From Escherichia coli 042 (GTDB lineage Bacteria; Pseudomonadota; Gammaproteobacteria; Enterobacterales; Enterobacteriaceae), in NCBI RefSeq assembly GCF_000027125.1, contig NC_017626.1: a stretch of 64,000 nt of DNA. One strand, 5' to 3'. The notes beneath the pieces are model-generated. The model was not told where the DNA came from and did not search any database. It worked only from the letters and a program-made list of their open reading frames with translations. Numbering within the stretch: the stretch's first letter is position 1; each line of letters opens with the position of its first letter. This document shows positions 2,088 through 43,708 of this stretch, one piece after another. The position numbers and the translations under genes are program-made.

Positions 2088-3509
2088 TTACAAAAGAGTA
2101 ACTTTATGCAAAACTTCTAACACTAATTTTTCAGCTTTTATTATGTTATCTGCTTCTGCATAGCATCGCAATTCAGGTGCGTTGCCTGACGGTCGCAAAT
2201 GGATTATTGAACCATCACTTAGTGTCAATCTTAACCCGTCAATTGTATCCACCGATTGTACATGAAGATCGACAAAGCCTATTCTTTCGATAAATTCTTG
2301 AGGATTTTCTTGAGCTGACGCGATAATGCTTTTGCTTTTGCTTGTTGCAAAATTTTGAACTCTATTTGAGTAGGTAAATCGTGGTGGCAACTCCGCCAAG
2401 AGTTTTGAAATAGTCACATTATTTTTTATAGCCAGTGCCAGTACCATTAAAGCAGGCAAAACAGCATCTCTTGTTGGAAGCGCTTTAATCATACCGCTGT
2501 TATAATTTACATCGCTACCTAAAAGATACCCACCGTTAGCCTCAAACCCTGCAACCCTATCAAAACTATTATTCAGAGAATCAAACGCTGAAATGACGTA
2601 TGGTGAACCAATTTTAGTCAGCGTTACATGATTAAACCACCCGCAAGTCTGAATAACCGTATTACAACTTACAGGTACAGCTACCGCTTCAATATTCATT
2701 GCCTTTGAGCAAAATAGTCCTAATATATCACCCCGTAACCAAACGCCATTTTCGTCAGCAACCAAAGGACGATCGCCATCACCATCGGTAGAAAAAATCA
2801 TATCGAGGTCATACTCAGATGACCAGTGTAAAGCTTTTTCTTCATCTTCTTTTGATACTGCTTCAGTATCAATAGGCACAAACTCATCACTTCTACCAAT
2901 ACTTACAACTTCAGCACCAAGCTTACTGAATATTTCTGAATAAAGATCCCGTCCCGCACTTGAATGTTCATAAATCCCGATACGTTTACCTTTAAATATA
3001 TTTGAAAAAATTGAAGTGTTTCTCTCGATATAAGTATCAGCGGCACGCTTTGAACATTGTAATTCTGGCAATACAGTTACATCAGGATACTCTTTTTCAG
3101 CATGTATAATGCTGTTCTCATTTTCTTTTGAAATTTCCCCGTCTGGACGATAGAATTTCAAACCATTTCTATCAAATGGAATATGACTTCCAGTAACCAT
3201 TATTGCAGGAATCCCATCGGCAATCGCTTGATTTGCCAAAGCTGGAGTTGGAATTACACCGTAGTAAATAGGTTTAATACTACATTCCAACAATGCTGCT
3301 GCGCAAGCTTGTGCCATAGCATAGCTGCTTGGGCGATTATCTATTGCGAGCGCAACCTCTTTAAAAGAAAAATCCTTCATCATTACATCGATAAAAGCAT
3401 AAGTGAATGCAGCACACACGTTGGGTGTAAAATCTTTCACTAATCCACGAGCACCACTTGTACCAAATGCAATTCCGCTATTTTTAATTACATCATTGGT
3501 AATATTCAT
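2088..3509 (-). CDS. phosphomannomutase/phosphoglucomutase-family sugar phosphate mutase (manB-like)
   Basis: ORF-track protein has a [11 protein letters not shown] active-site serine loop and DGDGDR metal-binding loop typical of alpha-D-phosphohexomutases. Start trimmed to the ATG at 3509 (MNITNDV...), which avoids overlap with manC. Confidence 0.7.
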
Positions 3510-3513
3510 ATAA

Positions 3514-4929
3514 TTATTTATCCTCAACACGACCATATTTATCACTTAGGCGCACAATATCATCATCACCTAGATATACACCCGACTGAATCTCAATTAC
3601 TTCTAATGGTATCTTTCCTGGATTTTCCAAGGTATGAACTGTGCCAATTGGTATGAAAGTTGACTCATTTTCAGTGACGAAAAAAGTGCGTTCGCCGCAA
3701 GTCACCTTTGCAGTACCAGCGACAACCACCCAATGCTCAGCTCGATGATGATGCATTTGTGTTGAGAGACATTCACCAGGCTTAACGGTAATACGCTTTA
3801 CCTGATAACGGTCGCCACGTTCTACAGAATCATAACGTCCCCAAGGACGATAGACTTCGCGATGGGATATATGTTCGCTACGTTTTTGCTTTTTAAGAAT
3901 TTCGACAATCTTCTTTATGTCTTGTACGTTGTCTTGCTGTGCTACCAGGAGCGCATCTTTAGTTTGAACTATAATAAGGTTATTAACTCCTACAGTGCTG
4001 ATCAGTGAACCTTCAGAGTAAATGTAGTTGTTCCTGCTGTCATAGTTAATTACATCGCCATGCGATACGTTTTCATGTTCATCTTTCTCTGATATTTCCC
4101 AAAGTGATGTCCATGAACCGATGTCACTCCAGTCAGCATCAAGTGGAATAACTACACAATCCTGAGTTTTTTCCATTACCGCATAATCAATTGACTCATC
4201 GGGACATTCTGCAAAGACATCAGAATTTAATCTGATAAAATCTAGATCAGTACTAGCACTGGAAAGCGACTCTTTACACGCTGCTAAAATATCAGGGCGA
4301 AATTTTTTCAATTCATCTAAATATACGCTCGCCTTGAACATGAACATACCACTATTCCACAAATAGCATTTTTGTTCGAGATAATTTTTAGCCGTTTCTA
4401 AATCAGGTTTTTCGACGAAAGAATTTACTTTAAATACAGAGTTTTTAACTTGTTCGCCCTTTTTAATATAGCCATACCCAGTTTCAGGTTTGGTCGGGAC
4501 GATGCCAAAAGTCACTAACTTATTGTCAACGGACTCTTGTTCTGCAGCTAAAACAGCTGCATGGAAGGCTTCAATATCCTGAATAGCATGGTCAGCAGCA
4601 AGAACCAGCATATGATGATCGCCATGGAGTTCTAGAGACTTTAGAGCAGCCAGCGCAACGGCGGGCGCAGTATTTCTACCTACAGGTTCTAGAATAATCT
4701 GGAAGTCATCCACACCGAACTGTCGCAATTGTTCAGCAACAATAAATCTATGCTCATTATTGCTAACAATGACAGGAGGCAAACAATTTAATCCATCAAG
4801 TCTCTTCAACGTTTCCTGGAGCAAACTATTTTCATTAATCAATGATAAAAATTGTTTCGGGTATAACGAACGCGAAAGAGGCCATAAGCGAGTACCAGAA
4901 CCACCGGCCATAATAATTGGGATAATCAT
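3514..4929 (-). CDS. manC: mannose-1-phosphate guanylyltransferase / mannose-6-phosphate isomerase (type II)
   Basis: 471 aa; N-terminus [27 protein letters not shown] is the nucleotidyltransferase signature; a cupin-like C-terminus; clear paralogue of cpsB at 17171-18607. Confidence 0.85.
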
Positions 4930-41326: not shown

Positions 41327-41343
41327 GGGAGCGTTTGCCCATT

Positions 41344-41368
41344 GCCTGATGCGACGTATCAGGCCTAC
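41344..41368. repeat. single REP unit at the alkA 3' end
   Basis: GCCTGATGCGACGTATCAGGCCTAC palindromic unit. Confidence 0.6.
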
Positions 41369-42222
41369 AATTCGTCCGTTCCGTCTGGTTGCCAGCCTTC
41401 TGTATACCAGATATGCAACAGCGCATAAGAACGCCAGGGCTTCCAGCGTTCGGCATAACGGCGGATTTGTGCCGGTGTCATTCCCGGAAATCGCTGTTTA
41501 ATCAGATAATCATCCGGCAGGAAAACATCTTTCGCCTGCCAGCCACGTAAGGCGAAATAATTCGCCGTCCAGCGCCCGATACCCGGAAAAGTTTGCAGCG
41601 TTTTCATCGCTTGTTCTACGTCGCCCGGAATTGTCATTGGTAAGGTGCCCTCCAGCGCCGCATTTGCCAGATGAATCAGTGCCTCTGCCCGTTTCAACGG
41701 CATACCTAACGCTTTTAATGCCTGCGGGTCGGCTGCAGCCAGCCGCTGAGGCGTGGGGAAGCAGACATAATCCGGAAAATCATCCAGCCGTTCGCCATAA
41801 AGCTGTGCCACTCTGGCGGTCAATTTTGCCGCCATCGCCACGCTCACCAGTTGGCCTAAAATCGCCCGCACGCCCTGCTCAAAAGCATCAACACTGCCGG
41901 GTAAACGCAATCCGGGCCGCGCCGCGCCTAACTTGCCCAACGCACCGTTAACAATCTGCGGGTGACATTGCAGATCAAACAGGCGGCTCATTTTCGCCAG
42001 ACACTCTGCGGCAACAGGTTCTAAACCTGCACTTAAATTTATGTGCAGAGTATGGCGGGCTATATCCGGAATAGCAGTCACCACGCCGCGATATTCGCCC
42101 ACCGCCAGACTACGGGCATAATAATCGTCAGCGACCGTTTCCACACCGTTCACCGCACGGGCGGCGAGAAATCCCAACATCCACGACCAGTCATACGGCG
42201 GCTGCCAGTTCAGGGTATACAT
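41365..42222 (-). CDS. alkA: 3-methyladenine DNA glycosylase II
   Basis: 285 aa; MYTLNWQPPYDWSWMLGFLAARAV N-terminus of AlkA. Confidence 0.9.
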   Translation of the reverse strand: MYTLNWQPPYDWSWMLGFLAARAVNGVETVADDYYARSLAVGEYRGVVTAIPDIARHTLHINLSAGLEPVAAECLAKMSRLFDLQCHPQIVNGALGKLGAARPGLRLPGSVDAFEQGVRAILGQLVSVAMAAKLTARVAQLYGERLDDFPDYVCFPTPQRLAAADPQALKALGMPLKRAEALIHLANAALEGTLPMTIPGDVEQAMKTLQTFPGIGRWTANYFALRGWQAKDVFLPDDYLIKQRFPGMTPAQIRRYAERWKPWRSYALLHIWYTEGWQPDGTDEL

Positions 42223-42274
42223 CGCATCTCCTTGTTAATCCGCTTTCAGCATAAACGTTATTCAGACGCTACGC

Positions 42275-42282
42275 TTTGCTTT
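42275..42282 (-). promoter_or_regulatory. Ada box (AAAGCAAA) in the alkA promoter
   Basis: Minus-strand AAAGCAAA about 50 bp upstream of the alkA start, matching the alkA-type Ada site. Confidence 0.6.
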
Positions 42283-42355
42283 CATATTCCGGTTGTCGCG
42301 ACGGCAACATTTCGCTAAAGTCACGCCCCTTCTTCACCGGCATGGGGATTATTTC

Positions 42356-43708
42356 GTGTTTATTGGTTTTGATTACGGTACAGCAAACTGTTCAGTGGCG
42401 GTTATGCGCGACGGTAAGCCGCAATTACTGAAAATGGAAAACGACAGCACGCTGCTGCCTTCAATGCTTTGCGCGCCAACGCGTGAAGCGGTAAGCGAAT
42501 GGCTGTACCGCCATCATGATGTTCCGGCAGACGACGATGAAACGCAGGCGCTGTTGCGTCGGGCGATTCGTTATAACCGCGAAGAAGATATCGATGTTAC
42601 GGCGAAAAGCGTGCAGTTCGGTCTTTCCTCACTGGCACAGTACATTGATGATCCAGAAGAGGTGTGGTTTGTGAAATCACCAAAATCATTCCTCGGTGCC
42701 AGCGGCTTAAAACCGCAGCAGGTAGCGCTGTTTGAGGATCTGGTCTGCGCAATGATGTTGCACATTCGCCAGCAGGCGCAGGCGCAGCTGCCGGAGGCAA
42801 TTACTCAGGCGGTGATTGGTCGCCCGATCAACTTCCAGGGGCTGGGCGGCGATGAAGCAAACGCCCAGGCGCAAGGGATTCTGGAACGCGCGGCGAAGCG
42901 TGCCGGGTTTAAGGATGTGGTATTCCAGTACGAGCCGGTCGCGGCTGGGCTGGATTACGAAGCCACCTTGCAGGAAGAAAAACGGGTGCTGGTGGTGGAT
43001 ATCGGCGGTGGTACGACTGACTGTTCATTGCTGCTGATGGGGCCGCAGTGGCGTTCGCGTCTCGATCGTGAAGCCAGCCTGCTGGGTCACAGTGGTTGCC
43101 GTATTGGCGGTAACGATCTGGATATCGCACTGGCGTTTAAAAACCTGATGCCGTTACTGGGCATGGGTGGCGAAACCGAAAAAGGCATCGCCCTGCCGAT
43201 TCTGCCGTGGTGGAATGCGGTTGCCATCAACGACGTTCCTGCACAGAGTGATTTCTACAGTAGTGCCAACGGTCGTCTGCTTAACGACCTGGTACGCGAT
43301 GCCCGCGAACCGGAAAAAGTGGCCCTGTTACAGAAAGTCTGGCGTCAGCGTTTAAGCTATCGCCTGGTACGTAGCGCAGAAGAGAGCAAAATTGCGCTTT
43401 CAAGCGTAGCGGAAACCCGCGCCTCACTGCCGTTTATCAGCGATGAACTGGCTACGCTGATTAGCCAGCAAGGGCTGGAAAGCGCCCTCAGCCAGCCACT
43501 GGCGCGGATTCTGGAACAGGTGCAACTGGCGCTGGATAACGCCCAGGAAAAACCGGACGTTATCTACCTGACCGGCGGTAGCGCCCGTTCGCCGCTGATT
43601 AAAAAAGCGCTGACAGAACAGTTGCCGGGCATTCCGATTGCAGGTGGCGATGACTTTGGCTCCGTCACCGCCGGGCTGGCACGCTGGGCGGAAGTGGTGT
43701 TTCGTTAA
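42356..43708 (+). CDS. yegD: Hsp70-family (actin-like ATPase) protein YegD
   Basis: GTG start at 42356 gives 450 aa beginning FIGFDYGTANCSVAV; ORF-track frame extended upstream to 42293. Confidence 0.85.
   Translation: MFIGFDYGTANCSVAVMRDGKPQLLKMENDSTLLPSMLCAPTREAVSEWLYRHHDVPADDDETQALLRRAIRYNREEDIDVTAKSVQFGLSSLAQYIDDPEEVWFVKSPKSFLGASGLKPQQVALFEDLVCAMMLHIRQQAQAQLPEAITQAVIGRPINFQGLGGDEANAQAQGILERAAKRAGFKDVVFQYEPVAAGLDYEATLQEEKRVLVVDIGGGTTDCSLLLMGPQWRSRLDREASLLGHSGCRIGGNDLDIALAFKNLMPLLGMGGETEKGIALPILPWWNAVAINDVPAQSDFYSSANGRLLNDLVRDAREPEKVALLQKVWRQRLSYRLVRSAEESKIALSSVAETRASLPFISDELATLISQQGLESALSQPLARILEQVQLALDNAQEKPDVIYLTGGSARSPLIKKALTEQLPGIPIAGGDDFGSVTAGLARWAEVVFR

Follow-up and report, generated by a model that had tools for sequence, protein, structure and literature searches.

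Which bases in the short interval between alkA and yegD are read by Ada, and do the promoters of these two divergent genes overlap? The question is raised by a gap of only 133 bp, at positions 42223–42355 of the 64-kb stretch of Escherichia coli DNA analysed here (referred to as the window), which has the same length in K-12. The gap holds the classical alkA promoter of E. coli, which depends on Ada and the biology of which is already known. It is highly probable that alkA is transcribed from 42241 with a TATGCT −10 element and with the Ada operator as a stand-in for the −35 element, and that this arrangement stands back to back with a sigma-70 promoter for yegD. As textbooks have covered this promoter and its Ada site for decades, they carry little weight as a discovery. 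Natural variation, both among ~60 related genomes and within thousands of E. coli strains, however, gives independent backing to AAT-N6-GCAA over AAAGCAAA and AAANNAAAGCGCA as the definition of the operator. The region also yields a prediction, open to experiment, of where the uncharacterised promoter of yegD lies, together with a strikingly conserved yegD leader beside the Ada site that could inform studies of yegD control.

Locus and comparison set

A 333-bp query over the region gave matches in 5411 of 5426 complete E. coli genomes, and the locus in E. coli N3 was 100% identical to the window over this query. In both N3 and K-12 the RefSeq gene order is dgcE, alkA (−), yegD (+) and yegI, with 133 bp between the divergent genes (Table 1), and Pfam recognises AlkA_N and HhH-GPD domains in AlkA. 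Alignment to K-12 revealed three SNPs in the gap (42271, 42237 and 42234), the first of which lies outside the Ada contact boxes and the other two in the alkA 5′UTR.

Some features of the flanking genes were also recorded. AlkA has 285 residues in the window (ending ...DGTDEL) compared to 282 in K-12, and the 858-bp alkA gene is also present in three other E. coli strains. A REP-like palindrome, GCCTGATGCGACGTATCAGGC, is located between the convergent genes dgcE and alkA (41338–41375, with the end of alkA at 41365–41375). For K-12, dgcE–alkA is reported, and yegD–yegI listed, as a convergent overlapping-transcript pair (PMC12288877).

Table 1. Positions of promoter elements, operator and genes at the alkA/yegD locus (window coordinates; negative positions are relative to the mapped alkA start)
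Feature	Sequence	Position	Strand	Remarks
alkA CDS		41365–42222	−	DNA-3-methyladenine glycosylase II, 285 aa; ATG at 42222–42220; ORF list, Pfam, RefSeq
alkA Shine-Dalgarno	AAGGAG	42228–42233	−	by reading the sequence
alkA +1	G	42241	−	K-12 start (PMC3415461) transferred via near-identical alignment; 19-nt 5′UTR
alkA −10	TATGCT	42248–42253	−	−12 to −7
Spacer, Ada B box to alkA −10		42254–42275	−	22 nt; length fixed, sequence variable
Octamer	AAAGCAAA	42275–42282	−	older alkA Ada definition; −41 to −34; 7 of 8 bases common to the operator
Ada operator	AATATGAAAGCAA	42276–42288	−	−47 to −35; AAT-N6-GCAA
Ada B box	GCAA	42276–42279	−	6 bp downstream of the A box
Ada N6 spacer	ATGAAA	42280–42285	−	from sequence
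Ada A box	AAT	42286–42288	−	from sequence
yegD −35 (predicted)	TTGTCG	42293–42298	+	top plus-strand sigma-70 candidate
yegD −10 (predicted)	TAAAGT	42316–42321	+	17 bp from the −35; implied start ~42327–42330
yegD discriminator and leader		42322–42348	+	highly conserved; ends in the Shine-Dalgarno GGGGA, 42344–42348
yegD CDS		42356–43708	+	Hsp70/actin-like ATPase, 450 aa; GTG start

Relatives of AlkA were found by protein similarity, with one genome per species and no selection for the motif. The resulting dataset of 62 sequences comprised the window, K-12 and 60 loci of a genome collection, covering Escherichia, Citrobacter, Enterobacter, Klebsiella, Raoultella, Kosakonia, Phytobacter, Lelliottia, Yokenella and other genera; no Salmonella or more distant Enterobacterales were among the loci returned by the protein-pattern scan. 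All 62 sequences have alkA and yegD as divergent neighbours, separated by 130–149 bp with one exception of 196 bp. Two loci labelled as Chryseobacterium sp. 18061 (L031) and Terrisporobacter mayombei (L061) carry enterobacterial alkA sequence, the second on a 449-bp contig which is 100% identical to residues 210–280 of the window AlkA, and both most likely represent mislabelled or contaminated assemblies.

The alkA start and core promoter

Kim et al. 2012 (PMC3415461, supplementary file 2) mapped the K-12 alkA start to 2145583 (−), with 39 reads and a 5′UTR of 19 nt. The upstream sequence given there, CGGAATATGAAAGCAAAGCGCAGCGTCTGAATAACGTTTATGCTGAAAGCG, ending in ...TATGCTGAAAGCG, differs from the window by one base. 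The original prediction had named the mapped alkA start as the check that could overturn its Ada site; the start at 42241 proved compatible with that site, placing the octamer AAAGCAAA at −41 to −34.

The −10 element is TATGCT in 54 of the 62 sequences and TATGAT, TATCAT, TAGACT or TATCAA in the remainder (mean column identity 0.96). A usable −35 element is absent: the hexamer found 17 bp upstream of the −10, AAGCGT (42276–42271), matches TTGACA at only one of six positions, and neither of two promoter scans called a sigma-70 promoter in the alkA direction within the gap, as would be expected of an activator-dependent promoter. The Ada operator occupies the place of a −35 hexamer.

The distance between the B box and the −10 element was 22 nt in all 57 sequences in which it could be scored, while the mean identity of these 22 nucleotides was 0.59. 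The two longest gaps, those of Citrobacter amalonaticus S646 (196 bp) and Enterobacter sp. JUb54 (149 bp), owe their length to extra bases in the alkA 5′UTR, downstream of the −10 element, and both keep 35 nt between the Ada site and that element; the insert in C. amalonaticus is ~60 bp long. Mean column identity in the 5′UTR (42223–42240) was just 0.36, although the aligned relatives have AGGAG close to the start codon of alkA.

Two repeated structures were noted in the gap. A 7-nt direct repeat on the alkA strand, TGAAAGC, occurs within the Ada site (42278–42284) and again at −7 to −1 (42242–42248), but its second copy is not conserved in relatives and the repeat is probably due to chance. 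The palindrome GTCGCGAC is likewise unconserved in relatives and was treated as a chance occurrence.

A candidate yegD promoter and a conserved block that overlaps it

The yegD gene had been predicted to begin with GTG at 42356, ~75 bp from the Ada site, and the distance from the end of the octamer to this codon is indeed 74 bp. An in-frame TTG at 42293, which would extend the protein by 21 codons and underlies a 471-aa yegD in the ORF list, was rejected: relatives carry 1-nt indels in the stretch concerned, and the codon aligned with residue 1 of YegD is GTG or ATG throughout the 62 sequences, so that the 450-aa start stands.

The sigma-70 candidate in the yegD direction scored 9.4 bits, compared to a 90th percentile of 8.9 for the best scores per 181 nt in the window, and it was missed by a stricter 9-of-12 consensus scan. 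Its −35 element reads TTGTCN in 62/62 sequences (column identity 0.99), and TAAAGT and the 17-bp spacing are invariant in all 62, window included, while the distal part of the spacer (42299–42307) has an identity of 0.54. Conserved hexamers held apart by a spacer of variable sequence and fixed length form the pattern expected of a promoter, and from the sequence pattern we infer that yegD is read from a sigma-70 promoter of its own, TTGTCG-17 bp-TAAAGT. In line with sigma-70 dependence, yegD is raised 14-fold in an rpoS mutant of EDL933, where it is among the top 50 raised genes. Visual comparison with the consensus sequences for sigma-32, sigma-E, sigma-28 and sigma-54 gave no convincing match for yegD. 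The implied start falls on pyrimidines (CCCT, 42327–42330), which is unusual, and the K-12 start table of Kim et al. 2012 (PMC3415461) has no entry for yegD.

Conservation does not end with the promoter. A block of ~40 nt on the plus strand (42308–42348), which starts a little before the predicted −10 and ends with the Shine-Dalgarno sequence, is at least 90% identical at most positions over the 61 relatives, with flanking spacers at 40–55%, and it extends ~27 nt past the −10, beyond what a core promoter needs. Mean identity over the 61 related sequences was 0.91 for the yegD leader and 0.99 for its Shine-Dalgarno sequence. Judging by this conservation, the block may hold an operator, a leader element or a further regulator site for yegD. 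Coding potential was rejected as its cause, as relatives show 1-nt indels within the block; the same indels, together with the lack of a third-base pattern, speak against a 24-codon ORF on the alkA strand (ATG at 42343).

Several published effects on yegD may act at this block. The small RNA RyhB activates translation of yegD but not a yegD transcriptional fusion (PMC4666370), overproduction of YegJ raises yegD mRNA (PMC13232886), and RpoS has the negative effect described above.

The reach of conservation well past the −10 is also what would be seen if yegD transcription began further upstream, within or beyond the alkA promoter, so that 42308–42348 were an RNA element of the 5′UTR rather than part of a promoter (for instance, a structure hiding the ribosome-binding site and opened by RyhB) and the two transcripts truly overlapped. 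An effect of RyhB on translation only would imply an inhibitory leader (PMC4666370), and CACGCCCC (42322–42329) can pair with the GGGG of the Shine-Dalgarno sequence and with CGUG, which contains the start codon. The predicted fold of the leader, however, is weak (−7.8 kcal/mol) and no better than that of shuffled sequences (z = +0.7 to +1.1), with no covariation to test, and no Rfam family was found in the leader, the sole match being at chance level (E = 9.4) and located inside alkA; RNA structure is therefore an improbable cause of the conservation. The unconstrained RyhB–yegD duplex energy is at background, being equalled by 35% of random 54-mers, and the published interaction energy is also poor (PMC7154689). 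Finally, the divergent overlapping-transcript pairs reported for K-12 do not include alkA–yegD (PMC12288877), and two hexamers flanking a variable 17-bp spacer resemble a promoter. We regard an upstream start as unlikely and retain the predicted sigma-70 promoter at 42293–42321 as the preferred reading.

Relationship between the two promoters

It had been suggested that the divergent promoters overlap. With the yegD promoter as predicted, this would not hold for their cores, which would abut, the predicted yegD −35 lying 4 bp beyond the Ada A box, with ~87 bp between the mapped alkA start and the predicted yegD start; it would hold only for the upstream zones contacted by alpha-CTD and activator. 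Polymerase at alkA would reach to ~42296–42301 and polymerase at yegD to ~42273, so the two upstream zones would share a segment that includes the Ada site. None of the 16 divergent excludons of MG1655 is formed by this pair, although both genes are weakly expressed (PMC12288877).

Such proximity could mean that the Ada operator is bidirectional, with bound Ada, or Ada together with polymerase, also activating yegD or blocking its −35, and with the layout coupling the two genes. Of the 56 sequences scorable for both elements, 52 have 4 bp between the A box and the predicted yegD −35, and conservation across the family takes in the entire 74-bp stretch from one −10 element to the other. Binding of alpha subunits upstream of Ada (PMC4437013) would fall on the yegD −35, and both alkA and yegD are reported to be negatively affected by RpoS. 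In Yokenella regensburgei, however, an additional 16 bp separate the A box from the predicted yegD −35 (20 bp instead of 4), while both promoters are otherwise intact. It is the only clear case in the set in which the two promoter halves have been pulled apart, and this insertion, taken together with the invariant distance from the Ada site to the alkA −10, indicates that the Ada site travels with alkA. Moreover, the site is asymmetric and inverted as seen from yegD, and yegD goes unmentioned in both text and supplement of a tiling-array study of the response to MNNG, the top hits of which were ada, alkA and alkB (PMC6505713). Two-way action of the operator is thus decidedly unlikely. Its specific form as a shared element, in which either induction of alkA turns yegD off by placing alpha subunits over the yegD −35 or Ada turns yegD on, appears more doubtful still; if true, it would tie YegD, an Hsp70-like protein resembling a chaperone, to the adaptive response to alkylation. 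We accordingly continue with the reading in which an Ada-dependent alkA promoter and a separate yegD promoter abut.

Definition of the Ada operator

The octamer AAAGCAAA was found exactly where it had been predicted, at 42275–42282 on the alkA strand, and its identification as the alkA-type Ada site is right in that it belongs to the known K-12 alkA promoter. The structural unit, however, is better described as AAT-N6-GCAA at 42276–42288, so that the conserved Ada unit is shifted 6 bp upstream relative to the octamer. The 13-mer AATATGAAAGCAA is given as the alkA A/B-box site in Table 7 of PMC6505713. In the Ada–DNA structure the A box is read by residues R45 and R71 and the B box by F114, H115 and R118, the boxes being 6 bp apart (PMC4437013). 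Affinity is ~10-fold lower where the base just 5′ of the B box is A, as in the alkA/aidB type, instead of C (PMC4437013; rule also in PMC3788762), and the window has A at this position (42280; AAA-GCAA), which places it with the lower-affinity alkA/aidB type. By the A/B-box definition the region carries an Ada operator, with Ada function assigned by analogy to the near-identical K-12 promoter. A literature search with the literal Ada motifs returned unrelated papers only.

In the aligned relatives AAT-N6-GCAA is kept in 58 of 61 non-window sequences, at −64 to −68 from the ATG in most of them. The A box is invariant in 62/62 sequences (identity 1.00), followed by the B box (0.99) and the N6 spacer (0.93), while the last A of the octamer (42275) has an identity of only 0.26. 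The Ada site ranks as the third most conserved of 121 13-column runs in the gap, the neighbouring spacers being 0.41–0.59 identical.

Older papers define the site differently, as AAAGCGCA for ada and AAAGCAA for alkA (PMC3788762), or as AAANNAAAGCGCA (PMC6505713, PMC3788762), and the functional Ada sequence at alkA could accordingly be one of the older boxes, AAAGCAAA or AAANNAAAGCGCA, instead of AAT-N6-GCAA. K-12 agrees with this in having AAAGCAAAGCGCA, a perfect match to AAANNAAAGCGCA. The window, however, has AAAGCAAAGCGTA, mismatched at 42271 (GCGTA, compared to GCGCA in K-12), and exact matches to the 61-mer with the window allele number 2192 E. coli records as opposed to 1509 for the K-12 61-mer, which makes the K-12 version the rarer of the two by this measure. 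Of the 61 other sequences, 17 contain the octamer and 9 the full 13-mer; position 42275 is conserved at 26% and the GCGYA tail at 72%, compared to 99–100% for the A and B boxes, and the reviewed Ada–DNA structure favours these boxes (PMC4437013, PMC6505713). An older box as the functional sequence is very improbable, and AAT-N6-GCAA is retained as the operator.

Motif counts alone are uninformative. The octamer AAAGCAAA has six matches in the 64-kb window compared to 4.5 ± 2.1 expected, a number equalled in 26 of 100 shuffles, and AAT-N6-GCAA has 11 matches compared to 17.9 expected; since both are at chance level, significance rests on position relative to the mapped start and on cross-species conservation. 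Despite these counts, a functionless chance match of the octamer is next to inconceivable and is effectively refuted by its position relative to the mapped start, by family-wide conservation with fixed spacing and by decades of published work on the near-identical K-12 promoter.

Variation and interruption of the site

Five Escherichia sequences (K-12, three other E. coli strains and E. albertii) were aligned to the window. Polymorphisms were present at 42271, 42269, 42262, 42303 and 42352 and in the alkA 5′UTR, and the Ada boxes and both −10 elements were free of them.

In E. coli 23CRST001 the Ada B box is separated from the alkA −10 by an inserted IS4-family element (ISVsa5, IS10-like; positions 2540–3880 of locus L067), at a site corresponding to window 42267–42275, with a 9-bp target duplication, AGCGTAGCG. 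Judging from its position, this insertion should uncouple alkA from Ada in this strain. Two other loci, those of Intestinirhabdus alba (L024) and Phytobacter massiliensis (L046), have GCAG instead of GCAA as the B box, with the spacer also changed in P. massiliensis, suggesting that Ada control of alkA may be weakened or lost in both.

Proposed mechanism of alkA activation

Following alkylation damage, Ada methylated at Cys38 reads the A and B boxes with its N-terminal domain and, lying over the −35 position, recruits polymerase through a contact with sigma-70. Landini and Busby are said to have described such a contact of Ada with sigma-70 at alkA in 1999. Going by the geometry, Ada at −47 to −35 would act like a class II activator and make up for the contact that the absent −35 element cannot offer.

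The published properties of the system are as follows. Methylation of Cys38 removes negative charge and serves as an electrostatic switch for sequence-specific DNA binding by Ada (PMC4437013). At the alkA promoter, RNA polymerase alone binds weakly, binding of the alpha subunit upstream depends on Ada, and transcription can be stimulated by both methylated and unmethylated Ada and is lowered by RpoS (PMC4437013). Treatment with MNNG induces alkA by +2.72 log2 units (PMC6505713).

Comparison with known systems

The closest system is the alkA promoter of K-12, which shares with the window the locus, gene order, Ada A and B boxes, −10 element and spacing, so that the mapped start transfers directly. 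The two differ by three SNPs, of which GCGCA (K-12) to GCGTA (window) at 42271 breaks the match to AAANNAAAGCGCA outside the A and B boxes.

The ada and aidB promoters have the same operator grammar, AAT-N6-GCAA, and the same reader, the N-terminal domain of methylated Ada. In both, the Ada site lies upstream of the −35, whereas at alkA it covers the −35 position, and both forms of Ada can stimulate alkA. Distances between Ada site and start differ among ada, alkA and aidB, and the mode of action at alkA is a different one: at the ada promoter polymerase binds only with methylated Ada, and the ada site has a C 5′ of the B box, with ~10-fold higher affinity compared to the A at alkA (PMC4437013).

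Class II activator-dependent promoters, at which the activator lies over the −35 and touches region 4 of sigma-70, resemble alkA in that they lack a usable −35, have their activator site centred near −41 and involve a contact with sigma-70. Activators of the class II type are ligand-binding dimers, whereas Ada is an asymmetric monomer switched on by self-methylation.

Divergent promoter pairs with a shared control region are similar in layout, with starts ~87 bp apart (that of yegD being predicted) and a regulator site between them; they differ in that the alkA and yegD halves are separable, as the insertion in Yokenella shows.
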